Under the pieces are notes generated by a model. That model saw only the letters and a list, made by a program, of their open reading frames with translations. It was not told the DNA's origin and made no database searches. Of a stretch of 64,000 bases of DNA, positions 1,952 to 59,814 are shown in pieces. Location: assembly GCA_051313645.2 (NCBI GenBank), contig JBNRSN020000008.1, positions 169,198,001 to 169,262,000 of the forward strand, in the 5' to 3' direction. Each line of letters starts with the position of its first letter. The first letter of the stretch is position 1. A program made the position numbers and the translations under genes. This DNA is from Centroscyllium fabricii. Taxonomy: Eukaryota.

Positions 1952-2511
1952 TATAGGCAAATGTGGCAGTCATTTTATCCACACGAGTTCACCTAAATAA
2001 TATCAGTTTCTGGTAGTACAGGTTGAGCACCGGTAATCCGTTACCCGATAAGCCGGCTGCTTCAGTCTTCCGGAACAAATTGCCCCGACTGCCCTGCGGA
2101 TGCGCAAAATGGCTGCCATGATCGATGCTTCAGTGAATGATCTGCGCATGCGCAGATCATTCACAATGGCCGGCGCGAAGTTTTTAATGATCTGTGTGTA
2201 GTAACCATTATATGTCTACTATTCCTGTGTACCATTATGGCTAATGACGGTCTGTGCAGATGTTAGGCACAGCCCAGTATTCTGTGATTCTGTTGGGAGC
2301 CAGGTCAGCCACACCCCTAACTCCTCCCCCAGGTGAGGCCCGTTATAGGTAAGGTCTGACCAAGGCTCCTTCATTCCTGGACAGTAGTTCGTCTGGAGAG
2401 TAGCTCCATTCTTTAGCAATTAAAAGCCTTTAGTTTCGGCAACTACTCGTAGTCTCTTTTAATTGAAGTTACTGACGATACGTCAATTTTAATTGCTAAA
2501 TATTTTTAATA

Positions 2512-4424: not shown

Positions 4425-7400
4425 TGTAACCGTCAATAACGTCTTCGGAGTCGAATAGTTGGTTAGAATAATCAGGCTTTTATTAACTACGATGACAATA
4501 CACAAGTATCCAACAGTGAGGCTGACTGTCCCCGGAATGGCATGGGGGATGGGGGCAGTCACTTATATACCTCCTCCAGCGGGGGAGGAGTCATGGGCGG
4601 CGCCAGGTATGCTCCTGGGATCCCGTACAGGTATTACATAGTATTACATGGTGATTCGTTATATACAGTGATATATGGTTTATCACATTCACCCCTTCTT
4701 TAAAAACAAAAGTATAGTGGGGTGAACAAAACACGGAGATACAGCGAGGTGAAAAAAACTAATAATTACATGGTGATTCGTCAACAACAAGAAAAAAAAT
4801 ATATACACAATCAGAGTTCTTATGACTATAAATTCAGTCTATCAGGCGGTTTTGTTATCCACGCTGATCTTCGCACCGCTGGTGGTGCCTGTGGTGTTCG
4901 TTGTCGTGGAGTGGCTGGTTGTGTCGGTTGTTCCCTTGATGCCGGTCGACTGATAGTGGTTATATCACTGCTGTGTGGCGGTGGTGCCCTGATTCTGGCA
5001 GCAGGGGGCGCGGTCTCTACTTCGTCCTCTGACTCTAGGGGGCGCGCTTTGTGGATCCAAGCTTGGTGCTCATTCGTGCTGCTCGCAGGTGCCTTGTGGG
5101 CATACTGGGGTACTGGGCCCACGTGTTGGGGCGTGTCCTTCGGCTTCGGCGGCGCGGGGAGCGTCACAGGGCTTTTTGGGTGCGCGGGCTGCTTGGCGGG
5201 GCTTTTTGGGAGATCATGTTGCTTGGCGGGGCTGGGTTTTGGGACTCCTGCTGGGGCTAGGTCCTTTATGGACACGGTGTCCTCCCTCCCGTTGGGCTTA
5301 TGCTATGTAAGCGTACTGGGGATTGGCGTGCAGGAGGTGGACCCGTTCGACTAGGGGATCTGCCTTATGTCCCCTCACATGCTTCCGCAGCAGGACCGGT
5401 CCCGGAGATAGTAGCCACGATGGTAGCGAGGTCCCGGAAGCTGACTTCCTGGGGAAGGCAAAAAGTCTTTCGTGAGGGGTGGCATTGGTGGCAGTACACA
5501 GGAGGAACCGGATAGAGTGGAGCGCTTCAGGGAGAACGTCTTGCCATCGGGTGACTGGGAGGTCTTTGGACTTTAGGGCTAACTGGATGGCTTTCCAGAC
5601 TGTGGCGTTCTCTCTCTCTACCTGTCCGTTCCCCCGGGGGTTGTAGCTGGTAGTCCTGCTAGTCGCGATGTCTTTCGCTAGCAGAAACTGACGCAGCTCG
5701 TCGCTCATAAAAGAGGCCCCCCGGTCACTATGGATATAGTTCGGGTACCCGAACAGGGAGAAGATGCTACTGAGGGCTTTGGTGACGGTGGCGGAGGTCA
5801 TATCCTGGCAGGGGATGGCGAAAGGGAAGCGGTAGTACTCATCTATAACGTTGAGGAAATAGACATTCCTGTTGGCTGAGGGAAGGGGCCCTTTAAAATC
5901 GACACTGAGTCGTTCAAAGGGGCGAGTGGCTTTGATCAAGTGCGCCCGATCTGGCCGGTAGAAGTGCGGCTTGCACTCCGCGCAGACCTGGCAATTGCTG
6001 GTCATGGTCTTGACCTCCTCGATGGAGTAGGGGAGGTTGCGGGACTTCATGAAGTGAACCAACCTGGTGACCCCCGGGTGGCAGAGGTCATTGTGGAGGG
6101 TTTGGAGACGGTCAGCCTGTGCGCTGGCACAGGTACCGTGTGATAGGGCGTCTGGGGGTTCGTTAAATTTCCCGGGCCGGTACAAGATATCATAATTGAA
6201 TGCCGATAGTTCAATTCGCCACCTTAGTATCTTGTCGTTCTTGATCTTACCCCGCTCTTTGTTGTTGAACATAAAAGCGACTGAGCGTTGGTCAGTCAAC
6301 AGGGTAAAACGCTTGCCGGCCAGGTAGTGCTTCCAGTGCTGCACTGCTTCAACAATGGCCTGGGCCTCCTTTTCGACTGAGGAATGACGGGTTTCGGGGC
6401 CTTGGAGGGTACGTGAAAAGAAGGCCACGGGTCTGCCCGCCTGATTAAGGGTGGCGGCCAGTGCAAAGTCCGATGCATCGCTTTCCACTTGGAATGGGAC
6501 GGACTCATCCACAGCGTGCATCGTGGCTTTGGCGATATCGTTTTTGATTCTGCAGAATGCCGAGTTGGCTTCTGCAGAAAGGGGAAAAGATGTCGTTTTA
6601 AGTAGTGGGCGAGCTTTGTCCGCATAATTGGGGACCCACTGGGCATAATAGGCAAAGAATCCCAAAATCCGTTTAAGAGATTTGGGGGAGTGGGGGATGG
6701 GAAGCCCCATGAGGGGGCGCATGCGGTCCGGGTCTGGACCGATGACTCCATTCTCCACCACGCTGCCGAGGATGGCTAGGCGGGTGGTGTTAAACACACA
6801 TTTCTCCTTGTTATATGTGAGGTTCAGGGTTTTGGCCGTAAGGAGAAATTTTTGGAGATTATCGTTATGGTCCTGCTGGTCATGGCCACAGATGGTTACA
6901 TTATCAAGGTACGGGAATGTCGCTCGCAGCCTGTACTGATCAACCATTCGGTCCATCTCCCTCTGGAAGACCGAGACCCCGTTTGTGACGCCAAACGGAA
7001 CCCTAAGGAAGTGATAGAGGCGACCGTCAGCCTCAAAAGCTGTATAAGGACGGTCCTCTGAGCGGATGGGGAGTTGGTGATAGGCAGATTTTAAATCGAT
7101 AGTAGAGTACACTTTAAATTGTGCAATTTGGTTCACCATGTCCGCTATCCGAGGGAGAGGGTAGGCATCTAGTTGGGTGAACCGGTTTATGGTCTGGCTA
7201 TAATCCACTACCATCCTATTCTTTTCTCCGGTTTTTACTACCACTACCTGTGCTCTCCAGGGGCTATTACTGGCCTCTATGACCCCTTCTTTTAGGAGGC
7301 GCTGCACCTCAGATTTTATAAATACCATGTCCCCAGCACTGTAGCGCCTACTCTTGGTGGCGACGGGCTTGCAGTCTGGGGTGAGGTTGGCAAAGAGGGA

Positions 7401-9077
7401 TGGAGGGGCAACCTTAAGGGTTGAGAGACCACAGGTAGTGTACAGGGGGTGCCGCTTTGAGCCGCGGTTTGTGACCGTGAGAGGGGGAAGGGGTCCGCCG
7501 AATGCCATGGTAACGCTCCGAAGGTGGCACTGAAAATCCAGTCCCAGTAGTAGGGGGGCGCAGAGCTGCGGCAGCACGTAAAAGCTAAAATTATCGAACA
7601 TTGCGCCCTGTACATTAAGCGTTACAATACAGCGCCCAGTGACGTCAGCGGATTCTGACTTGGACGCCATAGATATTCTTTGGCGCGCAGGGGTTATTTT
7701 AAGGGAGAGGCGCTTTACAGTATTTGGGTGAACAAAACTTACTGTGCTCCCACTATCGAACAGGCACACCACCTCTTCACCATTGACTTCCACCGGCATC
7801 ATCGACCTCTCCAGTGGCTGAATCTTCCTCTGGTCTAGGTTCATGGATGCTAGTACCGGGTCCTCCGGGATGTCTTGATCCGGAGATTCTTCCAGATCTG
7901 CTCCCCAAGATGGCTGCCGCCATGTGTTGCGCTGTTGAGTCCAAGATGGCCGCTGTTGCTGCCACGAGTGCTGCCGAGTGGGGGATGGGTGAGCCCGATA
8001 TTGCTGCTCCCCTGTTCCACACGCAGCGCTGCCCAGTTTTGATTTAGCATTAGGGCCTTTGTAAACCTTCGCATAGTGTCCCTTTTTGTCACACTTGGAG
8101 CAGATCGCTTCTTTAGCAGGGCAGCTGCGTCTTGAATGCTGTGGTTGCCCACAGAAGTAGCATTTCGCTTTAGCGTGGGCCGCTGTGAGAAGTTCATCTG
8201 GCGGTCGTTGTGCCAGCGCTGTCCAAGATTGCGGGGCTGGGCCCGTATAGTTACTTGAGTAGGATGATAAGTCCGTAGAGGCGCTATCCAGCGCGTGTCC
8301 CAAGTCTGTAGTGGCCTGTAAGTCTTGGCCATTCTGTTCCAGCAGTCTCTGCCTGGCATAGTCCGATTTCAGGCCTGTTACATAGGCATCCCTGATGAGG
8401 CTCTCCATATGCACTAGAGCCGTTTGCGCTCTGCAGTCACAGTCCCGTGCCAGAATTCTGAGGGCTCTTAGGAACTGCACACTCGACTCTCCATTCTGTT
8501 GCTTTCGGGTGGCGAGTATATGTCTCGCGTGGACTCTGTTTGGTGCCCGATTATATTCCGCCTCGAGGGTCCTGAGGGCTTCTTGGAACGATGGGGCGTC
8601 CACTATCATTGAATATACTTGCGGGCCCACCCGGGCGTGGAGGAGTCGCCGTTTTTGCTCCTCGGTCAGTATGACCGCCGCGTTGGCTCTGATGTACCCT
8701 TCAAGTACATTTCGCCAGTGTGAGAAGGCGTTTGATGCTCCAGAAGATCGGGGGTCAACTTCGAACACCGATGGTTTCAACATTGTAGTATCCATTTCCA
8801 GCAGTTAATAAAATTGTAACCGTCAATAACGTCTTCGGAGTCGAATAGTTGGTTAGAATAATCAGGCTTTTATTAACTACGATGACAACACACAAGTATC
8901 CAACAGTGAGGCTGACTGTCCCCGGAATGGCATGGGGGATGGGGGCAGTCACTTATATACCTCCTCCAGCGGGGGAGGAGTCATGGGCAGCGCCAGGTAT
9001 GCTCCTGGGATCCCGTACAGGTATTACATAGTATTACATGGTGATTCGTTACATACAGTGATATATGGTTTATCACA
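4425..9077 (-). mobile_element. Ty3/gypsy LTR retrotransposon B, nested in A in the opposite orientation
   Basis: 263-bp LTRs at 4425-4687 and 8815-9077 (about 3 substitutions). TSD AGGCG/GGGCG. PPT next to 4688. Confidence 0.97.
4826..8795 (-). pseudogene. Element B gag-pol polyprotein with one late frameshift
   Basis: 1165-aa ORF (5298-8795) plus its C-terminus in ORF 4826-5275, separated by a 1-bp insertion near 5298 relative to element C. The second knuckle has C>Y (HYAKVY). Protease LFDSGS, RT YLDN. Confidence 0.93.
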
Positions 9078-9082
9078 GGGCG

Positions 9083-11426
9083 TATGCTAAAGGAGGGGAT
9101 TATTGAAACCAGCACCAGCCCCTGGCGCACCCAAGTTGTAGTGGTGAAGTCTGGCGAGAAGCAACGGCTGGTGATCGATTACAGCCAGACTATCAACCGC
9201 TACACCGGGCTCGACGCCTACCCCCTTCCCCGCATCTCAGACATGGTCAATCAGATCACCCAGTACAAGGTGTTCTCTACGATCGACCTTAAATCGGCGT
9301 ATCATCAGCTCCCGATTCGGAAAGCCGACCGCCCCTACACCGCCTTCGAGGCGAACGGTCGGCTCTACCACTTCCTCCGGGTCCCCTTTGGCGTGACCAA
9401 CGGAGTGTCAGTGTTCCAACGGGAGATGGACCGTATGGTTGACCAAAATGACTTGCAGGCCAATTTCCCTTACCTGGACAACGTGACCATCTGCGGCCAC
9501 GACCAGCAGGACCACGATGCCAATCTGTCCAAATTCCTCGCCACGGCGGACAAGCTGGACCTTACGTATAACAAAGACAAATGTGTCTTTAATACAACCC
9601 GGCTCGCCATCCTCGGATACGTGGTGGAAAACGGGCTCCTCGGCCCCGACCCACAGCGTATGCGACCCCTGCAAGAACTGCCCCTACCTCACAACCCCAA
9701 AGCCTTGAGGAGATGCCTAGGGTTTTTCTCCTATTATGCACAATGGGTCCCACAGTTCGCAGATAAGGCTAGACCGCTCCTCAAGGCTGCCGCCTTCCCC
9801 CTTTCTGTAGAAGCCCAAACGGCATTCGCAAGGATAAAGGAAGACATTATCAAGGCGACCATGCTCGCTGTTGATGAATCCATCCCTTTCCAGGTGGAGA
9901 GTGACGCTTCGGACTTTGCCCTTGCTGCCACCCTGAATCAGGCAGGCAGGCCCGTAGCGTTTTTCTCCCGCACCCTACAGGGACCTGAAACTCGCCACTC
10001 AGCAGTGGAAAAGGAGGCCCAGGCCATCGTGGAGGCCCAGGCCATCGTGGAGGCCGTGCGCTACTGGCGTCATTACCTGGCCGGTAAGCGTTTTACCCTG
10101 CTCACCGACCAACGGTCGGTGGCGTTTATGTTTCACAATAAACTACGGGGTAAAATCAAGAATGATAAGATCCTGCGGTGGCGGATTGAACTCTCGACTT
10201 ACGAGTACGACATTCTTTACCGACCAGGCAACCTCAATGATCCCCCGGACGCACTGTCCAGGGGACCGTGCGCCAGTGCCCAGCTAGACCGGCTGAAGGA
10301 CCTCCACGACCGCCTTTGCCACCCGGGTGTCACCAGACTCGCCCACTTCGTTAAATCCCGTAGCCTCCCCTACTCCATCACGGAGATCAAGGCTATGACC
10401 CGAGAGTGCCCTGTCTGCGCCGAGTGCAAACCCCACTTTTTCCGGCCAGACACGGCGCACCTCATTAAGGCCACCCGCCCCTTTGAACGTCTCAGCGTGG
10501 ACTTCAAAGGCCCCCTCCCCTCCACCGACCGCAACTCATACTTCCTCACGGTAGTGGATGAGTTCTCCCGCTTCCCCTTCACCTTCCCCTGCCCAGATAT
10601 GACGAGCGCCACGGTGATCAAACACTTCACCACGCTGTTCGCCATTTTCGGTCTCCCCAGCTACATCCATAGCGACCGGGGGTCATCGTTCATGAGCGAT
10701 GAACTGCGCCAGTTTCTGCTCCAGAGAGGGGTTGCCACGAGCAGAACGACGAGTTACAACCCCCGGGGGAATGGCCAGGTAGAAAGGGAGAATGGGATCC
10801 ACTGGAAGGCGGTCACCCTGGCTCTCAAGTCCAGAGGCCTTCCAGTGTCCCATTGGCAGGCAGTCCTCCCAGACGCGCTGCACTCTATACGCTCTCTGTT
10901 ATGTACTGCCACTAACGCCACCCCGCACGATCTGATTTTCTCTTTTAACAGGAGGTCGACTTCGGGGACAGCTCTTCCCCCATGGCTGACGACGCCAGGA
11001 TCGGTTTTGCTTAGGAGGCACGTCCGGAGCCACAAAACAGACCCCCTGGTGGACAAGGTACTGCTCCTCCACGCGAACCCGCACTACGCCTTCGTGCAGT
11101 TCCCAGACGGGCGTGAGGACACCATGTCCATCAGGGACCTGGCTCCCGCAGGAACCACCACCGCAGCGCCCCCTGCCGGCCAGCAGGTCGACCACCCACC
11201 AGACGCACGATGGCCCCTGAATTTTCCTGAATACGACCCGGACGACGGGGACCAGTCGAGCCCAGCGCCACCTGAAGTCGCAGTGCCGGCAGATGCGGGC
11301 TATTCGACCCAGGAGGCACCACCACCAACACCGGAGCTCCGGCGGTCCTCCAGGCAGACACGACCGCCGGACAGACTTATTGTTAACTGTTCTACCCATT
11401 CACCCCCCCCGACTCAAAGTTTTTAA
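9083..11426 (+). pseudogene. Element A pol (RT-RNase H-integrase), cut off from gag by element B
   Basis: 780-aa ORF with RT (IDLKSAYHQ, VPFGVTN, YLDN), RNase H (ESDASD, EKEAQAIV), integrase HHCC and DFKG/SDRG/VERE. It rejoins 4424 in frame as ..EVRRMLKEG.. Confidence 0.93.
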
Positions 11427-12218
11427 GAAGGGGTGAATGTAGTAACCATTATATGTCTACTATTCCTGTGTACCATTATGGCTAATGACGGGCTGTGCAG
11501 ATGTTAGGCACAGCCCAGTATTCTGTGATTCTGTTGGGAGCCAGGTCAGCCACACCCCTAGCTCCTCCCCCAGGTGAGGCCCGTTATAGGTAAGGTCTGA
11601 CCAAGGCTCCTTCATTCCTGTACAGTAGTTCGTCTGGAGAGTAGCTCCATTCTTTAGCAATTAAAAGCCTTTAGTTTCGGCAACTACTCGTAGTCTCTTT
11701 TAATTGAAGTTACTGACGATACGTCACTGTGCATGCGCTGCCGAACGATCCCGGGATGGGCCTTCCCGAGCCGGGCCTCGCCTCACCGAGCCGGGCGGGG
11801 GTTTCCCGAGCCGGGCCAGGGCTTCCCGAGCCGGGCCTCACCTCGACTTACCGAGCCGGGGCGGGGCTTCCTGAGACGGCCCTCGCCTTACCGAGCCAGG
11901 GCTTCCCGAGCCGGGCCTTACCGAACTGGGCCGGGGCTTCCCGAGCCGGACCAGCGCTTCCCGAGCCGGGCCTCACCTCGACTTACCGAGCTGGGGCTTC
12001 CCGAGACGGCCCTCGCCTTACCGAACGATAAGCGCATGTGCAGACCACTCAAAATGGCCGCCGGCTTTTCGCGGCCGCCATTTTGAATGGTGGCCTACTC
12101 CTGCTCCTATTTCTTATGTGTGCGCATGCGCTCGCCGAAGCTTCAATCGTTCGTGATTTTCACTTTCCCGGCACGGGCCTGGTCTCACCCATGCCGGATT
12201 AACAGTGCTCAACCTGTA

Positions 12219-17899: not shown

Positions 17900-19190
17900 G
17901 GATGGATGACTAAACCAATTGTACACCAGATTTGCTTATTTCTGCACACCTTGGACTTGAGGGGACAAAGATGGCGGGCCCTAGCTGGGTGGATGATTTG
18001 GATGGGGAGTAATGGTTTTGTTGGGGACAAGGGCTTCAAAGATAGAGGTGAGGAAGTAGTTGGGCAAACGACAGCTGCAGAGGTGTCACAGTGAGTGGTA
18101 GGCCAAAGGTAGTTGTGAGGTTGAAAGTGCAGTTGTAAACGGCTTGAGTAAGAGGACAGACACAGAAGGAAGTAGAGTTGGAAGGAGGCAAGGAAATGTG
18201 GGTGGTGAGCAAGGTTCCCTGTAATTTTTTATTGGGCCACGCGGCCCCTTTAGAGGATTGTGTGGCCCATTCAAGATACCGCGCAGGCGCGGTTTTTCTA
18301 TTTAAAAGCTGGCAAGCCAGCTCTGCAAGATCCCTGGAGTGCTGTGCGGGACCCCTGGAGTGTTGAGCGGGACCCCTGGAGTGCTGAGCGGGACCCCTGG
18401 AGTGCTGAGCGGGACCCCTGGAGTGCTGAGCGGGACCCCTGGAGTGCTGTGCGGGACCCCTGGAGTGCTGAGCGGGACCCCTGGAGTGCTGTGCGGGACC
18501 CCTGGAGTGCTGAGCGGGACCCCTGGAGTGCTGAGCGGGACCCCTGGAGTGCTGTGCGGGACCCCTGGAGTGCTGTGCAGCCGCGCAGCTTAAACCGCCG
18601 GTTGGTGGTGAGAGGTGCAAGGAAATAGTTGGTGATGGATTTGTCAGTGATCAAGACCACGGGAGTAGAAAGGTCACAGGAAAGGGCAAGGTCAAGGGGA
18701 TGGCCTTGAATATGGGTAGGAGTGTTTAAATGAAATGTTCAGGAAGAACAGGAGGGCAGTAAATTCAGAGGAGAGAAGGCATGAGGAGCTGATATTGAGC
18801 TTGAATTAACTGAGGATTAGAAGTCAGTCAGTGCAGGAGCTGAGGGAAGATATCTTGGTGAAAAGCCCGGAGTGAGGCGGGGGGGGGGGGAAGGGGGGGG
18901 GGGGGGGAGAGATACTGAAGTGGCCAATGAGGATTTTGAAGGAGAGGCGAGAGGAATGGAACAAGGTGAGGTGGTCAAAAGGAGGAGAATGTGCCAGGGG
19001 AGTAGGGGGAGAGAATATTGTGAGACTTGGTGATAAGGGGCACACCTGATGGTTTGGATGGGGCAGATGGTGAAAAGTATAGCCTGACGGAGCGACTTCA
19101 GTCAGGATCAAGGTGCAATCACACGTAAACCAAGTTTCAGTTAATGCCTGGATGTCAAGGCAATCATCCACAATAAGGTCCCAAAGTATC
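17900..19190 (-). mobile_element. Degenerate L2-type LINE endonuclease region, with an insert carrying a minisatellite
   Basis: Minus strand reads DLIVDDCLDIQALTETWF..PSGYTFHHLP, an APE endonuclease N-terminus. Confidence 0.65.
18332..18577. repeat. 21-bp minisatellite (cccctggagtgctgWgcggga), about 11.5 copies
   Basis: Near-perfect tandem units, visible directly. Confidence 0.97.
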
Positions 19191-19759: not shown

Positions 19760-21530
19760 ACACCCTAGTCCACTCCTCTACTTCCCCCATCACCCCTTCC
19801 AACACCAGCAGATGCAACACCTGCCCTTATACCTCCCCCCTTCCCACTGTCCAAGGCCCCAAACACCCCTTCCAGGTGAAACAGCGATTTACGTGTACTT
19901 CCTGCAATTTAGTATACTGTATTCGCTGCTCACTATGTGGTCTCCTCTACATCGGGGAGACCAAACGCAGATTGGGTGACCGCTTTGCGGAACACCTCCG
20001 TTCAGTCCATAAGAGGGACCCCAAGCTCCCGGCGGCCTGTCACTTTAATTCTCCACTCCCGTTCAGACCTCACTGTCTGTGGCCTGCTGCATTGTTCCAT
20101 GGAAGCTCAGCGTAAACTCGAGGAACAGCACCTCATCTTTCGCTTAGGCACTCTACAGCCCTCTGGACTAAACACAGAGTTCAACAATTTTAGATCATAA
20201 CCTCGGCCCCTACCACACTCTTTTACAGATATATATTTTCTCTCTTTTTTCAATCCACACTTTCGTCTGGGCTTTTTTCTTTTTTCCTTTCTTTTCTTTA
20301 CTCTGCTAAAGCTGTTCACACCTATTCAGAGCCATCCTGTGTTCCTTTAATTTCTCTGAATATCTCTTCCCTTTCCCCGCCTTCCATCCGGTCACTGATC
20401 AATTTAAATTCAATTTTTTCAATTTAAAAACTTTATTGGCATGACAGGATACATCCCTATGTTGCCAAAGTATAAAACATAACATACATAGTTAAAATGC
20501 ATAGATACAGATATACAATGTATGGGCAGATACGCCCCTGTACATATGTATACATATACACACAATACATCTGTAACCTTTTATCGGTTGCTACACGTTC
20601 TTGCAGTTACAAACAGTATAATAATTAGTGTTGATTAGTCTCTGTTTGTGTGTGCGTGTGTGCATGTTGGTCATTCACTGTCTCTCAGGTTGTGGCATGC
20701 TGTTACGTATTGTGCACCAAGCTGTGCCCTATTTCCCTCACCAAGGATTATTCTTAGTTTTGATATATCATCTAGTTCTTTGAAATCTGGGATTGCCAAG
20801 CTTAATTTGTCAAAGTATGTTTTCCTTGTTTTGTTGAATTTTTTGCATTTTAGGAGGAAGTGCACCTCTGTTTCAACCTCATCTGTCAAACAGTGATCGC
20901 ATATTCTATTTTCTCTTGGCTGCCAGGATTTCTTCTGTCTTCCTTTTTCGACTGCCAACTGGTGGTCACTTAGTCTGTACCTGGTGAGGGTCTGTCTCTG
21001 CTTTATATTTCTGACAGTGGAGAGATAGTCTGGCAATTTATAATCTCTTTTTAGGGCACAGTAACATTCTAATCTGCTTTGGCTTTTGGTTACTTTATCC
21101 CAATGTTCCAAATAGGTTTCTTTGCATTGTTTGATGATTTGGTTCACTCTAATTGGTGTTTGGAAAGCAGTGTTGATCTGAGACTGGTCAAAGTTTGACT
21201 GAGTAGGGGTAGTTAGTCTCAATACCAACTGACACAGGGGACTCTTTTCTGGGTTCCGCTCTTGGGTTTGGAGGGCTTTAAACTGGAGGGTGTCTGGGGG
21301 ACTAGATTTAAGGTGATTCCAAAAATGTAATGCTCTTTTTTGGATATTTCCTTTGTTCTTTCACACCCCCCCCCCCCTTTCCCCAGCCCCCACAAGCTTT
21401 AAAATCTATCTCCCCTGCTGGCTTCTCCAGTTTTGAAGAAAGGTTATCGACCTGAAACGTCAACTCTGTTCCTCTCTCCACCGATGCTGCCTGGCCTGCT
21501 GAGTTTCTCCAGCATTTTCTGTTGTTATTC
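19760..21530 (+). mobile_element. Penelope-like element 3' part (GIY-YIG endonuclease and tail), interrupted by a LINE
   Basis: QRFTCTSCNLVYCIRCSLCGLLYIGETKRRLGDRFAEH..KLEEQHLIFRLGTLQPSGLN. The tail resumes at about 21310-21530. Confidence 0.88.
20400..21305 (-). mobile_element. 5'-truncated non-LTR retrotransposon with C-terminal CCHC (RTEX-like)
   Basis: ORF 20671-21228 reads RYRLSDHQLAVEKGR..RICDHCLTDEVETEVHFLLKC, followed by an (ATTGA)n-like tail. A second copy lies at 41716-48010. Confidence 0.75.
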
Positions 21531-21531
21531 A

Positions 21532-22660
21532 CTGGTCTGAGCCATGTCTCTGATGGTTTACTGTGTAAAGGCACCAATCCCTGGTCTGAGCCGTGTCTCT
21601 GATAGTTTACTGTGTGAAGGCACCAATCCCTGGTCTGTGCTGTGTCTCTGATAGTTTACTGTGTAAAGGGACCAATCCCTGGTCTGTGCTGTGTCTGATG
21701 GTTTACTGTGTAAAGGCACCAATCCCTGGTCTGTGCTGCATCTGATGGTTTACTGTGTAAAGGCACCAATCCCTGGTCTGTGCTGTGTCTGATGGTTTAC
21801 TGTGTAAAGGCACCAATCCCTGGTCTGTGCTGTGTCTGATGGTTTACTGTGTAAAGGCACCAATCCCTGGTCTGTGCTGTGTCTGATGGTTTACTGTGTG
21901 AAGGCACCAATCCCTGGTCTGTGCTGTGTCTCTGATGGTTTACTGTGTAAAGGGACCAATCCCTGGTCTGTGCTGCATCTGATGGTTTACTGTGTAAAGG
22001 GACCAATCCCTGGTCTGTGCTGCATCTGATGGTTTACTGTGTAAAGGGACCAATCCCAGGTCTGTGCTGTGTCTCTGATGGTTTACTGTGTAAAGGCACC
22101 AATCCCTGGTCTGTGCTGCATCTGATGGTTTACTGTGTAAAGGCACCAATCCCTGGTCTGTGCTGTGTCTCTGATGGTTTACTGTGTAAAGACACGAATC
22201 CCTGGTCTGTGCTGTGTCTGATGGTTTACTGTGTAAAAGCACCAATCCCAGGTCTGTGCTCAGTCTGATGGTTTACTGTGTGAAGGCACCAATCCCTGGT
22301 CTGTGCCGTGTCTCTGATGGTTTACTGTGTGAAGGCACCAATCCCTGGTCTGTGCCGTGTCTCTGATGGTTTACTGTGTGAAGGCACCAATCCCTGGTCT
22401 GTGCTGTGTCTCTGATGGTTTACTGTGTAAAGGCACCAATCCCTGGTCTGTGCTGCATCTGATGGTTTACTGTGTAAAGACACGAATCCCTGGTCTGTGC
22501 TGTGTCTGATGGTTTACTGTGTGAAGGCACCAATCCCTGGTCTGTGCCGTGTCTCTGAAGGTTTACTGTGTAAAAGCACCAATCCCAGGTCTGTGCTCAG
22601 TCTGATGGTTTACTGTGTAAAAGCACCAATCCCAGGTCTGTGCTCAGTCTCTGATGGTTT
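21532..22660. repeat. 49/51-bp minisatellite, about 22 copies
   Basis: Unit tctgatggtttactgtgtaaaggcaccaatccctggtctgtgctgtg(tc). Confidence 0.97.
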
Positions 22661-22695
22661 AATGATTAATCAGTTACAGTGAATATGAAGATTGC

Positions 22696-25600
22696 TGTAA
22701 CCGTCAATAACGTCTTCGGAGTCGAATAGTTGGTTATAATAATCAGGCTTTTATTAACTACGTTAGCAATACACAACTGAGCTGACTGTCCCCAGAATGG
22801 CATGGGGGATGGGGGCAGTCGCTTATATACCTCCTCCAGTGGGGGAGGAGTCATGGGCGGCGCCAGGTATGTTCCTGGGATCCCGTACAGGTATTACAGG
22901 GTATTACAGGGTATTACAAGGTATTACAAGGTGATTCGTTATATACAGTGATATATGGTTTATCACATTCACCCCTTCTTTAAAACAAAAGTACAGCGGG
23001 GTGAACAAAACACGGAAGTATAACGGGGTGAGAAAAAACTAATAATTACAAGGTGCTCATTAACACAATATATACAATCAGAGTTCTTATGACTATAAAT
23101 TCAGTCTGTCAGGCGGTTTCGTTATCCGCGCTGATCTTCGCACCGCTGGTGGTGCCTGTGGTGTTCGTTGTCGTGGAGTGGCTGGTTGTGTCGGTTGTTC
23201 CCTTGCTGCCGGTCGACTGGTGGTGGTTATATCACTTCTGGGTGGCGGTGATGCCCTTATTCTGACAGCAGGGGGCGCGTTCTCTCCTTCGTCCTCTGAC
23301 TCTAGGGGGCGCGCGTTGTGGATCCAGGCTTGGGGCCGGGTCGTGCTGCTCGCAGGTGCCTTGTGGACATACTGGGGTACTGGGCCCACGTGTCGGGGCG
23401 TGTACTTCGGCCTCGGTGGCGCGGGGAGCGTCACAGGACGTTTTGGGAGCTCGGGCTGCCTGGCGGGGCTGGTTTTGGGGACTCCTGCTGGGGCTAGGTC
23501 CTTTATGGACACGGTGTCCTCCCTCCCGTCGGGGTACGCTATGTAAGCGTACTGGGGATTGGCGTGCAGGAGGTGGACCCGTTCGACTAGGGGATCTGCC
23601 TTGTGTCCCCTCCCATGCTTCCGCAGCAGGACCGGTCCCGGAGATAGCAGCCACGATGGTAGCGAGGTCCCGGAAGCTGACTTCCTGGGGAAGGCAAAAA
23701 GTCTTTCGTGAGGGGTGGCATTAGTGGCAGTACACAGTAGGGACCGGATAGAGTGGAGGGCTTCAGGGAGAACGTCCTGCCATCGGGTGACTGGGAGGTC
23801 TTTGGACTTTAGGGCTAACTGGATGGCTTTCCAGACCGTGGCGTTCTCTCTCTCTACCTGCCCGTTCCCCCGGGGGTTGTAGCTGGTAGTCCTGCTAGTC
23901 TCGATGCCTTTTGCTAGCAGGAACTGACGCAGCTCGTCACTCATAAAAGAGGCCCCCTGGTCACTATGGATATAGTTAGGGTACCCGAACAGGGAGAAGA
24001 TGCTACTGAGGGCTTTGATGACGGTGGCGGAGGTCATATCCTGGCAGGGTATGGCGAAGGGGAAACGGGAGTACTCATCTATAACATTGAGGAAATAGAC
24101 GTTCCTGTTGGCTGAGGGAAGGGGCCCTTTAAAATCGACGCTGAGTCGTTCAAAGGGGCGAGTGGCCTTGATTAAGTGCGCCCGGTCGGGCCGGTAGAAG
24201 TGCGGCTTGCACTCCGCGCAGACCTGGCAGTTGCTGGTCATGGTCTTGACCTCCTCGATGGAGTAGGGGAGGTTGCGGGACTTCACAAAGTGAACCAACC
24301 TGGTGACCCCCGGGTGGCAGAGGTCATTGTGAAGGGTTTGGAGACGGTCAGCCTGTGCGCTGGCACAGGTACCGCGGGATAGGGTGTCTGGGGGTTCGTT
24401 AAATATCCCGGGCCGGTACAAGATATCATAATTGAACGCCGATAGTTCAATTCTCCACCTTAGTATCTTGTCGTTCTTGATCTTACCCCGCTCTTTGTTG
24501 TTGAACATAAAAGCGACTGAGCGTTGGTCAGTCAACAGGGTAAAACGCTTGCCGGCCAGGTAGTGCTTCCAGTGCCGCACTGCTTCAACAATGGCCTGGG
24601 CCTCCTTTTCAATTGAGGAATGGCGGGTTTCTGGGCCTTGGAGGGTACGTGAAAAGAAGGCCACGGGTCTGCCCGCCTGATTAAGGGTGGCGGCCAGGGC
24701 AAAGTCCGATGCATCACTTTCCACTTGGAATGGGACGGACTCATCCACAGCGTGCATTGTGGCTTTGGCTATGTCGTTTTTAATTCTGCAGAATGCCGAG
24801 TTGGCTTCTGCAGAAAGTGGGAAAGAGGTTGATTTTAATAGTGGGCGAGCTTTGTCTGCGTAATTGGGGACCCACTGGGCATAATAGGCAAAGAATCCCA
24901 AAATCCGTTTAAGAGATTTGGGGGAGTGGGGGAGGGGAAGCTCCATGAGGGGGCGCATGCGGTCCGGGTCTGGACCGATGACTCCATTCTCCACCACGTT
25001 GCCGAGGATGGCAAGGCGGGTGGTGCTAAATACACATTTCTCCTTATTATACGTTAAATTCAGGGCTTTGGCCGTGTGGAGAAATTTTTGGAGATTGGTG
25101 TTATGGTCCTGCTGGTCATGGCCGCAGATGGTCACGTTATCAAGGTACGGGAAGGTCGCTCGCAGCCTGTACCGATCAACCATTCGGTCCATCTCCCTTT
25201 GGAAGACCGAGACCCCGTTCGTGACTCCAAACGGAACCCTAAGGAAGTGGTAGAGGCGGCCGTCAGCCACAAAGGCAGTATAGAGACGGTCCTCTGAGCC
25301 GATGGGGAGCTGGTGATAAGCAGATTTAAGGTCAATGGTCGAGAACACTTTAAACTGGGCGATTTGGTTCACCATGTCCGCTATCCGGGGAAGGGGGTAG
25401 GCATCTAATTGGGTGAACCGGTTTATGGTCTGGCTGTAATCCACTACCATCCTATTCTTCTCCCCGGTTTTCACCACGACTACCTGTGCTCTCCAGGGGC
25501 TATTACTGGCCTCTATGACCCCTTCTTTTTGGAGGCGCTGCACCTCGGATTTTATAAATGCCATGTCCCCAGCACTGTAGCGCCTACTCTTGGTGGCGAC

Positions 25601-27366
25601 GGGCTTACAGTCTGGGGTGAGATTGGCAAAGAGGGATGGAGGGGCAACCTTAAGGGTTGAGAGACCACAGGTAGTGTACTGGGGGTGCCGCTTTGAGCCG
25701 CGGTTTGTGACCGTGAGAGGGGGAAGGGGTCCACCGAATGCCATTGTAACGCTCCGAAGATGGCACTGGAAATCCAGTCCCAGGAGTAGGGGGGCGCAGA
25801 GCTGCGGCAGCACGTAAAAACTAAAATCATTGAACATTGCGCCCTGTACATTAAGAGTTACAATACAGCGCCCAGTGACGTCAGCGGATTCTGACTTGGA
25901 CGCCATAGATATTCTCTGGCGCGCAGGGATTACTTTAAGGGAGAGGCGCTTAACAGTATTCTGGTGAACAAAACTTACTGTGCTCCCACTGTCGAACAGG
26001 CACACCACCTCTTCACCGTTAACTTCCACCGGCATCATCGACCTCTCCAGTGGCTGGATTTTCCTCTGGTCTAGGCTCACGGATGCTAGTACCAGGTCCT
26101 CCAAAAAGTGTTGATCCGGAGAGTAGTTATCTTGGTCCGGAGAGTAGTTATCTTGATCCGGAGAGTAGTCCTCCAGATCTGCTCCCCGAGATGGCTGCCG
26201 CCATGTGTTGCGCTGTTGAGTCCAAGATGGCCGCTGTTGCTGCCTCGAGTGCTGCCGAGTGGGGGATGGGTGAGCCCGATATTGCTGCTCCCCTGTTCCA
26301 CACGCAGCGCTGCCCAGTCTTGATTTAGCGTTTGGGCCTTTGCAAACCTTCGCATAGTGTCCCTTTTTGTCGCACTTGGAGCAGATCGCTTCTTTTGCGG
26401 GGCAGCTGCGTCTTGGATGCTGTGGTTGCCCACAGAAGTAGCATTTAGCTTTAGCGTGGGCCGCTGTGAGAAGTTCCTCTGGCGGTCTTTGCGCCAGTAC
26501 TGTCCAAGATTGTGGGGCTGGGCCCGTATAGTTACTAGAGTAGGATGATAAATCCGTAGAGGCGCTATCTAGCGCGTGTCCCAAATCTGTAGTGGCCTGT
26601 AAGTCCTGGCCATTCTGCTCTAGCAGTCTTTGCCTAGCATAGTCCGATTTCAGGCCTGTTACATAGGCATCCCTGATGAGACTCTCCATATGCACTAGAG
26701 CCGTTTGCGCTCTGCAGTCACAGTCCCGTGCCAGAATTCTGAGGGCTCTTAGGAACTGCACACTCGACTCGTTATTCTGTTGTTTTCGGGTGGCGAGTAT
26801 ATGTCTCGCGTGGACTCTGTTTGGTGCCCGATTGTATTCCGCCTCGAGGATCCTGAGGGCTTCTTGGAATGATGGGGCGTCCACTATCATCGAATATACT
26901 TGCGGGCCCACCCGGGCGTGGAGGAGTCGTCGTTTTTGCTCCTCGGTCAGTATGACCGCTGCGTTGGCTCTAACGTATCCTTCAAGTACATTTCGCCAGT
27001 GTGAGAAAGCGTTTGATGCTCCAGGCGATCGGGGGTCAACTTCGAACACTGATGGTTTCAACATTGTAGTATCCATTTCCAGTAGTTAATAAAATTGTAA
27101 CCGTCAATAACGTCTTCGGAGTCGAATAGTTGGTTATAATAATCAGGCTTTTATTAACTACGTTAGCAATACACAACTGAGCTGACTGTCCCCAGAATGG
27201 CATGGGGGATGGGGGCAGTCGCTTATATACCTCCTCCAGCGGGGGAGGAGTCATGGGCGGCGCCAGGTATGTTCCTGGGATCCCGTACAGGTATTACAGG
27301 GTATTACAGGTATTACAAGGTATTACAAGGTGATTCGTTATATACAGTGATATATGGTTTATCACA
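22696..27366 (-). mobile_element. Full-length, apparently intact Ty3/gypsy LTR retrotransposon C (same family as B)
   Basis: LTRs at 22696-22967 and 27096-27366 differ by 1 substitution and a 1-bp indel. Perfect TSD ATTGC. PPT AAAGAAGGGGTGAA. Confidence 0.98.
23093..27076 (-). CDS. Element C single-ORF Gag-PR-RT-RNaseH-IN polyprotein (1327 aa)
   Basis: Uninterrupted ORF with two CCHC knuckles, LFDSGS, IDLKSAYHQ/YLDN, ESDASD, HHCC (HNDLCH..CQVC) and D-D-E (DFKG, SDQG, VERE). Confidence 0.97.
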   Translation of the reverse strand: MDTTMLKPSVFEVDPRSPGASNAFSHWRNVLEGYVRANAAVILTEEQKRRLLHARVGPQVYSMIVDAPSFQEALRILEAEYNRAPNRVHARHILATRKQQNNESSVQFLRALRILARDCDCRAQTALVHMESLIRDAYVTGLKSDYARQRLLEQNGQDLQATTDLGHALDSASTDLSSYSSNYTGPAPQSWTVLAQRPPEELLTAAHAKAKCYFCGQPQHPRRSCPAKEAICSKCDKKGHYAKVCKGPNAKSRLGSAACGTGEQQYRAHPSPTRQHSRQQQRPSWTQQRNTWRQPSRGADLEDYSPDQDNYSPDQDNYSPDQHFLEDLVLASVSLDQRKIQPLERSMMPVEVNGEEVVCLFDSGSTVSFVHQNTVKRLSLKVIPARQRISMASKSESADVTGRCIVTLNVQGAMFNDFSFYVLPQLCAPLLLGLDFQCHLRSVTMAFGGPLPPLTVTNRGSKRHPQYTTCGLSTLKVAPPSLFANLTPDCKPVATKSRRYSAGDMAFIKSEVQRLQKEGVIEASNSPWRAQVVVVKTGEKNRMVVDYSQTINRFTQLDAYPLPRIADMVNQIAQFKVFSTIDLKSAYHQLPIGSEDRLYTAFVADGRLYHFLRVPFGVTNGVSVFQREMDRMVDRYRLRATFPYLDNVTICGHDQQDHNTNLQKFLHTAKALNLTYNKEKCVFSTTRLAILGNVVENGVIGPDPDRMRPLMELPLPHSPKSLKRILGFFAYYAQWVPNYADKARPLLKSTSFPLSAEANSAFCRIKNDIAKATMHAVDESVPFQVESDASDFALAATLNQAGRPVAFFSRTLQGPETRHSSIEKEAQAIVEAVRHWKHYLAGKRFTLLTDQRSVAFMFNNKERGKIKNDKILRWRIELSAFNYDILYRPGIFNEPPDTLSRGTCASAQADRLQTLHNDLCHPGVTRLVHFVKSRNLPYSIEEVKTMTSNCQVCAECKPHFYRPDRAHLIKATRPFERLSVDFKGPLPSANRNVYFLNVIDEYSRFPFAIPCQDMTSATVIKALSSIFSLFGYPNYIHSDQGASFMSDELRQFLLAKGIETSRTTSYNPRGNGQVERENATVWKAIQLALKSKDLPVTRWQDVLPEALHSIRSLLCTATNATPHERLFAFPRKSASGTSLPSWLLSPGPVLLRKHGRGHKADPLVERVHLLHANPQYAYIAYPDGREDTVSIKDLAPAGVPKTSPARQPELPKRPVTLPAPPRPKYTPRHVGPVPQYVHKAPASSTTRPQAWIHNARPLESEDEGENAPPAVRIRASPPPRSDITTTSRPAAREQPTQPATPRQRTPQAPPAVRRSARITKPPDRLNL

Positions 27367-27509
27367 ATTGCATCCTTCCCTGAATGGGTAAGATTCCATT
27401 TGCTTAAATTCTGGCACACCAGCCACAATAAAATAGTAATTCACCCTTAAGATCCCGGCATCAGCCTTCCTCAGCTGCTGGTCCAAGTTAATCCAGAGAT
27501 TCTAGAACG

Positions 27510-43126: not shown

Positions 43127-46100
43127 TGTAGAGGTATGCAGGCCTGAAGAACCACGCTGGACACAGAGGATTCGGAAAACAATCATTTAATGTTAACACA
43201 ACTAGGGCCAGGTAGCAAAGAGACTGAGCCACCTGGATCCAAGGTATTTAAAGGACCCGCGGTTGGTGACGTCACTGCCGGGTGTCCACCTGGCGACGTC
43301 ATCACGCCGGAAGTCGCGGTGACGTCATCACGCTGCCCGGCGGGTGGGGCCGTCTCGCAGTACTCCCGAGGCGGATTCGATGGTCCTGGTGGGTGTGTCG
43401 CCACACAGCTCCCCCCCAGAATCTGTGAGGGAGAGCGAAGTTTAAGCTAAAGTAGAAAGGAGCATAAAGTAAAATAAAAAAATGGAGCATAAAAGTTGAG
43501 TCTCAGGCGAGGTGTTGAGGTGGCCTGATGATGCGGCCCGCCCGTGTAGTCTCAGGCAAGGTGTTGAGGTGGCCTGATGATGCGGCCAGCACGTGTCGTG
43601 CGCTGCTCCTTGTTCTGCGTGGGAGTGTGGGCGGGCTTTGGTGCGGTAGGATGTCCGCGCTTTGGTGGCTGCGCGGGGACTGTTGTCTCCCCCGCCATTA
43701 CATGTGCCGGTTTGAGCCGGTCGATTGAGACAGTCTCAGCTCTGTTGCCCATTTTAATCTGGAATGTTTTAGGTCCCGCCCGAAGCACTCTGTACGGTCC
43801 GTCGTACGGTGGCTGTAGTGGTGTTCGATGTGCGTCGTGGCGGACAAACACATACTTGGCATTTTCGATGCCGTCTGGAACACGTGCTGCCGGCTCTCCG
43901 TGCCGGGCCACCGGAAGTGGTTTGAACGCCGCTGCCTGGTTATTGAATTCATGAGGCAGCGGTCGGCTGACCAGGGGGCGTTGGTTTCTGCGACGAACTC
44001 GCCTGGTACGGTTAGGGGTTGGCCATAGACAAGTTCCGCCGCTGAGGCGTGCAGGTCTTCCTTGGCCGCTGAACGCAGGCCGAGCATTACCCAGGGCAGG
44101 CGGTCGGTCCAGGTCGCGTCTTTGAGGCTGGCCCGCAAGAAAGCTTTGATGGAGCGGTGGAACCGTTCGCAGAGGCCATTGGCCTGTGGGTGGTAGGCGG
44201 TGGTTCGGTGCAGGGTTGCCCCGAGGTCGTGGGCGATGGTTGCCCATAGGGTTGAGGTAAATTGGGGGCCCCTGTCTGATGTGATGTCGGAGGGGACGCC
44301 GAAACGTGCGACCCAAGTGGCAATGAAGGCCCTGGCCAGGTCCGCGGTGGTGGTACCGGTGAGGGGGACCGCTTCTGGCCAGCGGGTGCTGCGGTCGACC
44401 ATGGTCATGACATGTGTATGTCCCCGTGATGGTGGTAGTGGTCCGACCAGGTCGATGTGGACGTGGCTGAAGCGTCTAGCTGGGATGGCGATCGTTTCCA
44501 CTGGTGCCTTGATGTGCTTATGCACCTTGGTGCGCTGGCAGGCATTGCAGGTGTTGGTCCAGGCGCGGACATCCTTGCGCAGGCCGCGCCAAACGAATCG
44601 CGCAGAGATCAGCTTTGTGGACGCGCGGACACCAGGGTGGGACAGGTCATGGAGGGTCTGGAAGATGTGTCGCCTCCATGCGTGGGGGACGATGGGTCTG
44701 GGCTGCGGGAGGGAGACGTCGCAGCGGACCGCCGTGGCTGTGGGCCCGTGTGCTACGGTGGCCAAGAGCAGGCCGGGGAGGTTGGTAGCTGGGTCGAGCA
44801 GATCGGGGTCGGTCAGTTGGTCGGCCGCCAGTTTGGCGTAGTCGACGGCCGTTTGAACGGAGTTGATGGTGGGGCGTGAGAGGCAGTCAGCGACCACGTT
44901 GTCGCGGCCGGCGATGTGCTGTATGTCGGTGGTAAACTCCGACACAGCCGTGAGCTGGCGCTGCTGCCTGGCCGACCAGGGTTCGGCGATCTTAGCCATT
45001 GCAGACACAAGTGGCCTGTGATCTACGAAGGCTGTAAAGTGGCGGCCCTCTAGGAGGAAGCGGAAGTGGCGCACTGCGAGGTAGAGAGCGAGTAGCTCCC
45101 TATCGAAGGCACTGTACTTGACCTCCGGGGGCCGGAGTTGTCGGCTGAAAAAGGCCAGGGGTTGCCAGGAGTCGCCTGTCCACTGCTCAAAGACTGCTCC
45201 GACGGCACGGTCGGAGGCGTCGGTGGTGAGGGCTACTCTGGCGTTGGGCCTAGGGTGGCTGAGGAGCGTGGCGTTAGCCAGGGCGGTTTTGGTTGCGGTA
45301 AAGGTGGTGGAGGCTTCGGCCGTCCACTCGACCGCAGCCTTGTTGGACTGCCCGCGGGTGGCCTGATAGAGGGGTGCCATGAGGGCGGCTGCTCCTGGGA
45401 TGAAGCGGTTATAGAAGTTAACCATCCCGAGGAATTCCTGCAGCCCCTTGATGGAGTGCGGGCGGGGGAATTCCTGAACTGCCTGCACCTTGGAGGGCAG
45501 GGGTATGGCCCCGGTCTGGGAGATGTGGTGGCCGAGGAAGTCGATCGTCTCGAGGCCGAATCGACATTTGGAGGGGCTTAATATAAGGCCGTGTTCGGCC
45601 AGGCGGTTGAAAAGGGCCCGGAGATGGAGGAGGTGTTCCTGGGGGGAGGTGCTGGCCACGAGGATGTCGTCTAGGTAGACGAACGTGAACTGCAAGTCCC
45701 GCAGGACTGAGTCCATGAGGCGTTGGAAGGCCTGGGCCGCGTTTTTGAGTCCGAAGGGCATTCGGAGGAATTCAAATAATCCAAATGGGGTAATGACGGC
45801 TGTCTTAGGGACGTCCGCCGGGTGCACTGATACCTGGTGGTAGTCCCGTACCAGGTCGATCTTGGAAAAGACCGTGCAGCCGGCTAGCCTTGCTGAGAAA
45901 TCTTGGATGTGGGGGACGGGGTACCTGTCCGGGGTGGTGGCGTTGTTGAGGTGGCGGTAGTTTCCGCAGGGGCGCCAGCCGCCGCCGGGTTTGGGGGCAA
46001 TGTGGAGGGGGGAGGCCCAGGGGCTGCTGGAGCGGCGGATTATGCCGAGTTGTTCCATGATGTGGAACTCGGCGTGCGCGATCTCCAGCTTGGCCGGGTC

Positions 46101-48375: not shown

Positions 48376-48404
48376 GGGGGCGGGGGGGGGGGATGCTAAA
48401 TTGC

Positions 48405-58717: not shown

Positions 58718-59814
58718 ACAGACAGAAGAGACTGACTTAAAGATCACACATATCGGAGGAAGGGAGAAATCCGACCTCTTCCACATCTCACCCCAGCAGA
58801 GACTGAGAGCACACAAAGGCACATTAACATATTTTAACACCTCAGTCTGCGAGCAATGAGGCACAGTCGCAAGGGGGGTCAAATGCTGCAAAACACACAG
58901 AATGATTTAAAAAAAGGAATTTCCTTAAAAGACAAAGATGTCCCTAGTCCGGATGACTCTACGTCAGGCGGGACATCAAAGCAGTCCAAGATTTTCCAAC
59001 ATATCAAAAGGGTGCAGTCACAGGGTCAAATGTTAGTCTGCTGTAAGTCCCACAGAATAATTTTTTTTAAAACCATGATTTTTCTTACTTAAAATCGCAG
59101 AAGCAGCCTTCCAACATTGATTTTGAAATGAGGAAATTGCCATGTTGGGGGAATAGTAAACATGCGTCTTACTGCTCAAGGTATGAGGAATTGGAGAAAT
59201 GATCAGATTTTATTTTCTAAGTATCACTTAACCCGTTTTAATTTTACATAAATATAAAGTTAATACTGATTATTAAAACTACATTTTTGGGAATTGGAGG
59301 TTGCAGTGGGTTATCGCACCATATATTCATCCCTGGAACTTGTCTTCAGTCTAAACTAATGTGTCTTCTCTCTGTACGGGTTCTATATGAACTGACTTAG
59401 GACAGCCTCAACTCAGTTACGAATGACCAGGAATCCATGGCATAAAGGTCCCCCAAATCTGGCACAATGCTGAGGCAGTTGAGGAAGATTTGCTCCGCTT
59501 CTAATTGTGCTATGTCTACCTCGGAGTGAGTGATGCTGGTACTGGGTGCCGAGTGAAAGGTAGGTTACTCTGAGCACTGACATCGCTCAGCTTAATGAGT
59601 GCAAACATGGATATTTCTTTGAAATGCATGTTCCAAGGCACAACTCGCAATGTTAACTGAGTGCGTCATAAACAGAGTGGGAAGTTGAGAATTTAGTGAG
59701 AGTGGGTCTCTCTGGTAAGCTGGAGAGCAGGTCAAATTGAAATTTAGTCTTAACATTCAGAATTTAACTTTGAATGTTAAAAATTGCAAGACAGTTAGCA
59801 GTTGAGAATTTTGT

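Follow-up and report, generated by a model that had tools for sequence, protein, structure and literature searches.

Four retrotransposons in a stretch of the Centroscyllium fabricii genome carry asparagine where the YxDD box of reverse transcriptase (RT) has its second aspartate, which raises the question of whether such an enzyme works, what makes the replacement tolerable, and whether it goes with the unusual primer sites of the same elements. The stretch, here called the window, comprises the 64,000 nucleotides (nt) at positions 169,198,001 to 169,262,000 of contig JBNRSN020000008.1 (assembly GCA_051313645.2), and positions below are counted within it. The four elements, A, B, C and E, belong to a Ty3/gypsy clade that, as we consider probable, switches between Asp and Asn at this third catalytic position, with an RT that very likely works and with a fold-back primer site that stays the same.

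Elements with a YLDN motif

A six-frame scan of the window found FPYLDNVTICG in C (from 25147, minus strand), A (from 9471, plus strand) and B (from 6911, minus strand). The motif reads FPNLDNVTICG in E (from 50388, minus strand) and FVYLDDILVAS in a further element, D (from 45677, minus strand). The codons are TAC CTT GAT AAC in C, TAC CTG GAC AAC in A, TAC CTT GAT AAT in B and AAT TTG GAC AAT in E, which confirms an initial annotation of the window that had given AAC as the Asn codon for A and C, and AAT for B and E. The Asn of C falls within the interval 25125..25160 named there. C is a complete minus-strand element of 4,671 bp, bounded by long terminal repeats (LTRs) together with a target-site duplication (TSD). 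Its single open reading frame (ORF) encodes Gag with CCHC knuckles, aspartyl protease, RT, RNase H and integrase, and no env. Its features are listed below, with residues numbered so that the Asp after the first Met is residue 1.

27367..27371 and 22691..22695: flanking TSD, GCAAT
27096..27366, minus strand: 5' LTR, 271 bp, TG...CA
27149..27161, minus strand: fold-back arm within the 5' LTR, holding the poly(A) signal AATAAA
27082..27094, minus strand: primer-site position, starting 1 nt past the LTR end
23093..27076, minus strand: single open gag-pol ORF, 1327 amino acids (aa)
25337..25339, minus strand: Thr579, two residues before the motif A Asp, candidate permissive neighbor
25331..25333, minus strand: motif A catalytic Asp581, intact
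25136..25147, minus strand: RT motif C, Tyr-Leu-Asp-Asn, residues 643-646, Asn codon 25138-25136, aligned to YLDD of Ty3
25130..25132, minus strand: Thr648, two residues after the Asn, candidate permissive neighbor
24386..24715, minus strand: RNase H domain, catalytic Asp787, Glu824, Asp849 and Asp896 intact
22968..22981, minus strand: polypurine tract
22696..22967, minus strand: 3' LTR, 99.3% identical to the 5' LTR

The other LTR elements discussed here are the following.

2197..11726, plus strand: element A, LTRs 2197-2485 and 11438-11726, YLDN 9471-9482, TSD CTGTG, 14-bp fold-back
4425..9077, minus strand: element B, YLDN 6911-6900, ORF stopping late in integrase, TSD matching at 4/5 positions
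48405..53087, minus strand: decayed element E, NLDN 50388-50377, broken ORFs, TSD GCAAT, 15-bp fold-back
43127..47727, ends approximate, minus strand: element D, Ty3/gypsy of another clade, YLDD 45677-45666, TGG-type primer site

B belongs to the same family as C (91% DNA identity) and is nested in A, which it interrupts. The LTR pairs are 99% identical in A, 98.9% in B and 95.4% in E, and these pairs, together with those of the C-family loci described below, bear out the earlier statement that the elements moved recently. The accompanying statement that their TSDs are perfect holds for A, C and E and fails for B, which has one mismatch (CGCCC/CGCCT). The GCAAT duplication is common to C (22691-22695) and E (48400-48404); copies of the C family elsewhere have varied targets, so the match is probably due to chance.

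In an alignment with Ty3 RT, the Asn of C falls on the second Asp of YLDD, and all remaining RT and RNase H catalytic residues of C are intact. The motif A Asp is present in 187 of the 191 alignment rows that have a residue there. An AlphaFold model of the RT (predicted local distance difference test score 88.2, from a 77-row alignment) has an ordinary RT fold. Among the solved-structure libraries searched, Ty3 RT is the top match to C both in sequence (E ~1e-49) and in fold.

Abundance and state of the YLDN elements

The genome scanned measures 7.21 Gb. The pattern YLDN[VI]T[IV]CG has 222,611 matches in it and the YLDD version 445, counted as pattern matches and not as whole elements; reversed control patterns have none, so that the abundance of YLDN exceeds chance by far. 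The density of YLDN matches is about 1 per 32 kb, and the elements would account for up to roughly 14% of the genome were every match a full 4.5-kb element. Their share of the 7.2-Gb genome may thus be substantial. All 30 fetched loci read YLDN, which, with the genome counts, upholds the initial view that Asn is a family state and not decay. The 150 RT matches listed are 98-100% identical to C and have no stop in the matched stretch, many of them lying in frames of 1330-1348 aa. When 8 of these 150 places were taken whole, LTR pairs were found in 8/8 (95.9-99.6% identity) and frames of 1330-1348 aa in 7/8. The dN/dS of the RT is 0.096 between C and B and 0.066 between C and A, three of ten pairs being saturated. 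Judged by these ratios, the YLDN RT is under purifying selection. Decay or sequencing error as the source of the Asn is ruled out by the counts, the fetched loci and this selection. Copy number, selection and intact frames together indicate that the YLDN RT is very probably a working enzyme.

A single 26-nt sequence encoding YLDN occurs 95,713 times. One-base variants of it number 269 and 355 at the first and second positions of the Asn codon, and 616 at the central position of the codon for the essential Asp. Extrapolated from the first 100 matches listed for each, about 124 of the Asn-codon variants encode Asp and about 142 Ser. Since Asp variants are no commoner than Ser variants, Asp appears to be at mutational background and not amplified.

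A YLDD consensus for these families was rejected, as most YLDD matches are either scattered variants or members of one decayed family. The scattered one-base variants come from loci placed beside A, B and C on the tree. The separate YLDD family belongs to the same clade and has 123 matches, with Asp in 96 of the first 100. It is small and decayed, the open frame around its motif being only 59-661 aa in 19/19 loci.

Distribution and phylogeny

The site is Asn in 100 and Asp in 20 of the best 120 of 854 homologs. The best 150 cluster representatives yielded 102 RT stretches of at least 43% identity that fall within the clade (56 Asn, 44 Asp, 2 Tyr). Stretches below 43% have Asp in 94/94; they come mostly from multi-RT proteins and form a biased outgroup sample, of which one (P0259) belongs to the clade. 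An Asp-seeded search added 107 new proteins, 56 with Asp, 51 with Asn and none with any other residue.

The nearest named homologs are from sharks and rays. Named hosts of Asn members are Scyliorhinus, Hypanus, Mobula, Narcine, Styela, Actinostola, Hydra, Mytilus, Macrobrachium and Palaemon; those of Asp members are Ciona, Ischnura, Vanessa, Cydia, Trichuris and Trichinella. The initial suggestion that YxDN extends over a wide invertebrate and vertebrate clade is therefore correct, as sharks, rays, a tunicate, cnidarians, a mussel and prawns all have it. No relatives were found in the viral contig collection searched. Two proteins labeled as coming from bacterial metagenome-assembled genomes, P0013 and P0033, are clade members and likely reflect eukaryotic contamination of the bins.

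A first tree of 194 rows, from which the trait column, 12 hand-picked point variants from this genome and 2 rows with neither Asp nor Asn were left out, requires 14 changes at the Asp/Asn site and 1 at the first Asp. A wider tree has 234 non-redundant rows (from 373), including 32 outgroup rows, and 215 columns. One branch with Shimodaira-Hasegawa (SH) support of 100 separates the clade from the 32 outgroups, among which D falls. The 21 basal rows of the clade all have Asp. The crown (SH 94, 181 rows) contains all 129 Asn rows plus 52 Asp rows and requires 23 changes. A parsimony reconstruction of switch directions in the crown gave 16 from Asn to Asp and 9 from Asp to Asn. An IQ-TREE subset of 34 rows and 401 columns requires 11 changes, each of them forced by starred branches, and the approximately unbiased (AU) test rejects a tree with one Asn clade (p-AU 4e-5); the rows were hand-picked for interleaving after the earlier trees, so that the test is optimistic. 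Asp and Asn thus interleave on the tree, and YxDN is not the shared clade marker that the initial annotation had proposed. The constant marks of the clade are SPWRAQ, DYSxT[IV]N and, in the crown, NG[VS]. In DYSxT[IV]N (C residues 545-551), Ser with one inserted residue takes the place of the Arg of the common DYR motif, whether the member has Asp or Asn at the catalytic site. Among Ty3/gypsy elements, to go by the sequences compared, YxDN is confined to one metazoan clade, within which the site has switched between Asp and Asn many times.

The fold-back primer site

In A, B, C and E, the bases directly past the 5' LTR are complementary over 11-15 bp to an LTR arm with the poly(A) signal, and a TGG-type tRNA site is absent from this position. 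In C, the primer-site position has 13 nt perfectly complementary to the arm and no tRNA-type TGG. D has a TGG-type site (GTGGTGACC...), and no fold-back was found in it.

Of 80 metagenome loci, 48 extended far enough upstream; L107 was excluded because its motif was misaligned. Under strict scan criteria, the fold-back was detected in 20/34 Asn, 2/13 Asp and 1/1 Ser loci, and in 0/37 downstream and 0/240 shuffled controls. In a relaxed count of loci with frames of at least 589 aa, made by hand from the scan output and allowing one mismatch and contig permutation, it was present in 19/20 Asn and 5/6 Asp metagenome loci. The YLDD family of this genome has it in 11/19 loci, and YLDD loci with the fold-back in the same register lie on several separate branches (L049, L063, L066, L072, and L053 with an unclear LTR end). 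The fold-back characterizes the crown clade, independently of whether the site is Asp or Asn. Because YLDD members carry the same primer site, the link between YxDN and priming proposed in the initial annotation is unsupported; that annotation had itself named a distribution of YxDN independent of priming mode as grounds for dropping the link.

The arrangement is constant in position and variable in sequence. The primer-site arm starts 1 nt past the terminal CA of the LTR in nearly all families, and the stem letters differ wholly between families. In nearly all of them an AATAAA-like signal lies within the LTR arm or at its end, and this arm is about 36-66 nt upstream in most. In most families GCC or ACC directly follows the LTR arm (window 27149-27161; loci L031-L066, L151), possibly a cleavage or end signal. 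The arm of C starts about 68 nt past a TATA-like box, so it is probably not the very 5' end of the RNA, unlike in Tf1. These features suggest that Asp and Asn members alike likely prime themselves from the LTR arm at the poly(A) signal.

Search for compensating residues

None of the 770 column-residue traits tested in RT plus RNase H, nor of the 327 tested in the RT core, followed the individual Asp/Asn switches, which fits an old permissive background. The trait that tracked switches best, Glu711, changed in the same direction in 5.6/10 pairs of the first set and was not established. It was not enriched among the representatives (9/29 Asn and 13/38 Asp rows), gave a median p of 0.375 in the RT-core test, and again tended in its first direction in the third set (24/51 Asn against 15/56 Asp). 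Compensation in RNase H, as in the Ty1 suppressors described below, was rejected, no RNase H residue having tracked Asn. The initial proposal that the lineage has compensated for its Asn is thus plausible only in the form of an old permissive background, and not as residue changes accompanying each switch.

Crown and basal rows differ in a handful of columns, including Thr648, Gly620 and Thr579. Thr648 is found in 91% of crown Asn rows, 83% of crown Asp rows, 33% of basal rows and 0/32 outgroup rows. Lys, Arg or Gln occupies position 579 in 0/128 Asn rows and 27/71 Asp rows. None of 7 inferred gains of these residues took place on an Asn background, which makes up 66% of crown branch length (raw p 0.0005), for a column that is the best of 73 and a residue class chosen after the data were inspected. 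In held-out rows, the counts are 0/48 for Asn and 5/51 for Asp (one-sided p = 0.033, a value that ignores the relatedness of rows). The AlphaFold model places residues 579 and 581 on one strand, and 646 and 648 on a second; going by the geometry of HIV-1 RT, these strands presumably adjoin, with the four side chains on one face. Thr579 and Thr648 may be proposed, tentatively and with the odds somewhat against them, as enabling residues.

Relationship to known elements

C has the traits of Ty3/gypsy elements (Metaviridae) in its TG...CA LTRs, short TSD and polypurine tract, and Pfam matches place protease at residues 352-439, RT at 539-695, RNase H at 759-884 and integrase at 975-1071. It lacks the canonical YxDD and tRNA primer site, which are usual in this group though not strictly part of its definition (Tf1 has no tRNA site either), and has YLDN and a fold-back instead. 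Ty3 itself (PDB 4OL8) shares the LTR ends, the 5-bp TSD, the polypurine tract and the order Gag, protease, RT, RNase H, integrase. The clade differs from it in having Asn for the second Asp of YxDD, DYSxT[IV]N without the Arg of DYR, NG[VS] for NAP, and a fold-back on the LTR poly(A) signal in place of the tRNA site.

The clade is possibly Cigr-1. With its 245-bp LTRs and 3,630-bp ORF, Cigr-1 agrees with the short LTRs and the single ORF of about 1200 aa seen here. Three Ciona intestinalis proteins (P0142, P0286 and P0287, all YLDD) and a Mytilus protein fall inside the clade; Ciona may hold other gypsy clades. The Cigr-1 clade was founded on an element from Ciona intestinalis and is also known from molluscs and annelids, and neither the motif nor the primer site is mentioned in the accessible parts of the papers concerned (PMC6238403, PMC8556966). 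Llorens 2009 does not mention Cigr. The portions consulted of papers on fish, tapeworm and errantivirus elements contain no match to the motif or the primer site.

The same Asp-to-Asn change at the same position is known from nematode BEL/Pao elements. YVDN occurs naturally in Cer7-Cer12 and Atlas virus, including an intact element with identical LTRs, and is a hallmark of the group (PMC554778, PMC9094657); whether such elements retain activity was left to be determined in 2005 (PMC554778). The initial description of the second Asp as nearly invariant therefore has a published exception. BEL/Pao is a different superfamily, so that YVDN arose there independently, and the BEL/Pao traits of a triple Cys-His box in Gag and a Pao-type pol are absent from C, which has two CCHC knuckles and only gypsy-type Pfam matches. 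YVDN is a group hallmark in BEL/Pao, whereas the site described here switches within one clade that spans at least five phyla and has more than 200,000 matches in one genome. Natural YVDN in BEL/Pao is a precedent for the motif; the Ty3/gypsy clade is distinguished by a third catalytic position that holds Asp in some members and Asn in others. In the literature covered, which left out most subscription journals, Repbase reports and some supplements, neither YLDN or YxDN in Ty3/gypsy elements nor the primer arrangement on an LTR poly(A) arm was found described, and the portions available of PMC2774666, PMC12471100, PMC13524379, PMC11117352, PMC10415136 and PMC3315495 hold nothing on the motif.

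The chromoviruses of the Tf1/sushi type carry a chromodomain at the C-terminus of integrase, and the Pfam scan of C found no chromodomain family. Like Tf1 and the fungal element GalEa, the clade lacks a tRNA site and has a self-complementary sequence at the primer position. The primer site of Tf1 pairs with the first nucleotides of the mRNA, and GalEa has a Conserved Hairpin Site downstream of the LTR (PMC5445492). The pairing partner in the clade differs from both in being an internal LTR arm at the poly(A) signal.

Laboratory mutants carry the same residue at the same position. Ty1 D211N keeps polymerase activity with a 223-fold lower polymerization rate constant (kpol), prefers Mn2+ and does not transpose, as the initial annotation had stated; its suppressors map to RNase H and restore 5-10% (PMC2148107). 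Ty3 D214N is active in vitro with low processivity and lethal for transposition (PMC5371799). These mutants are blocked in transposition, whereas the clade has transposed massively.

Interpretation

It is likely that Asn is tolerated in this clade on a permissive background and independently of priming. The catalytic metals would be held by the motif A Asp together with the first Asp of YxDN, in line with mutagenesis of Ty1 and Ty3, and the third side chain would mainly position the primer end and stabilize the active complex, a role for which an amide is likely good enough in this clade. The tolerance would probably have a single origin at the base of the crown, in a palm already remodeled as seen in SPWRAQ, DYSxT[IV]N and NG[VS]. 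Thr579 and Thr648, small hydroxyl residues on one strand face, would be the foremost candidates for making it possible, and only Asp seems able to coexist with a basic residue at 579.

Several points weigh against this interpretation. Ty1 D211N and Ty3 D214N do not transpose despite their activity in vitro, and since they are blocked, real compensation would be needed here. Neither Thr579 nor Thr648 was supported by independent-pair tests (8 pairs, median p = 1), 12/129 crown Asn rows are without Thr648, and the association at 579 carries the selection and relatedness effects given with its p values. SH support for the crown node does not exceed 94, no more than 5 of the 23 changes on the 215-column tree are forced by starred branches, and the AU subset was picked by hand. 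As to the fold-back, the strict scan alone finds it far less often in Asp than in Asn loci, most of the Asp misses being broken or truncated loci; the long-ORF Asp locus L052 gave no clear call, and the LTR end of L053 is unclear. The stem of C alone is no more stable than shuffles (z = -0.97), and the fold-back data at the DNA level leave out the basal, all-Asp lineages.

Asn could instead be an adaptation to fold-back self-priming, or be tolerated through it, with the motif coupled to the mode of priming. Within the window the fold-back is found in each of the four YLDN elements and is missing from D, which has YLDD, and all long-ORF Asn loci but one have it as well. D is an outgroup, however, so the contrast within the window is confounded by clade; YLDD members on several branches share both fold-back and register, which refutes the strict form of the link, and YVDN arose also in the unrelated BEL/Pao elements. 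A weaker form, with self-priming as a precondition for Asn, agrees with the finding of no Asn member with a tRNA site among the loci examined. Overall we hold such a dependence to be improbable. If YxDN enzymes worked poorly or not at all and their elements were copied in trans by a YxDD enzyme, this would accord with the block in Ty1 D211N and Ty3 D214N and with the presence of a same-clade YLDD family in the genome. That family, however, is small and decayed next to the more than 200,000 YLDN matches, and because it is broken in 19/19 loci it is an unlikely helper. A dead site would also drift, whereas this site is almost only Asp or Asn; merely some 20% of the one-base variants at the first two bases of the Asn codon give Asp, and the YLDN RT keeps its other catalytic residues under purifying selection. 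Copying in trans is therefore highly improbable.

It would go beyond tolerance if Asn were positively favored in the crown, for instance because it changes fidelity, the use of metals or the handling of pyrophosphate. Asn is the crown majority (129/181), YLDN families exceed YLDD roughly 500-fold in this genome, Asp point variants have not amplified, and Ty1 D211N shifts metal preference to Mn2+. Copy number in one genome, however, reflects family history; parsimony gives more switches to Asp than to Asn; Asp families persist in many hosts; and Asn-seeded searches over-sample Asn lineages, the Asp-seeded one having returned 56 Asp and 51 Asn. Positive advantage of Asn is accordingly rated as quite unlikely. 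A further alternative concerns the fold-back, which might only hide the poly(A) signal of the 5' LTR, priming being achieved by other means. The placement of the arm at an AATAAA-like signal in nearly all families, and of the C arm probably away from the RNA 5' end, speak for it; the absence of a TGG tRNA site and the register held fixed past the LTR CA through complete changes of stem letters speak against it, as a primer needs a fixed register and the hiding of a signal does not. Hiding alone is rather unlikely, is compatible with a permissive background for Asn, and may hold together with self-priming, both being true at once.

A combined reading can be formulated that we regard as a speculation with perhaps a minor chance of holding in full. 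A two-carboxylate RT would be fully competent through remodeling of the palm, with hydroxyls flanking the third position; self-cut RNA would prime at the LTR poly(A) signal; one hairpin would both mask the 5' poly(A) site and supply the primer; and elements of this kind would have built a large share of the genome.

Other features of the window

Between the Gag knuckles and protease of A (window 3456-3843, plus strand) lies a 45-bp tandem repeat of in-frame ACESRAPP-like units. E has a similarly expanded linker between Gag and protease, and C has a short DNYSPDQ repeat there. D, which we take to be probably CsRN1-like, is frameshifted, has a DUF7041 Gag and sits inside another repeat, of which an uninterrupted copy is found near 20541-21217. 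Further features are

21498..22664: tandem array, period ~47/49 bp, adjoining the 3' LTR of C
18278..18634: tandem array, 21 bp
11731..11997: tandem array, 20-25 bp
59806..61505, plus strand: two overlapping frames matching RVT_1, probably a broken non-LTR retrotransposon, with related copies near 27513-28927

Implications

Asn in place of the third RT aspartate leaves the RTs of Ty1 and Ty3 active in vitro and stops transposition. At population scale, the clade shows that elements with YxDN can transpose massively and have done so recently, and it supplies many natural Asp/Asn sister pairs for biochemistry that need no engineering. Annotation pipelines that equate loss of YxDD with inactivity would reach a wrong verdict on such elements. 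Separately from the motif, the clade shares a testable priming arrangement in its covarying fold-back on the poly(A) signal.

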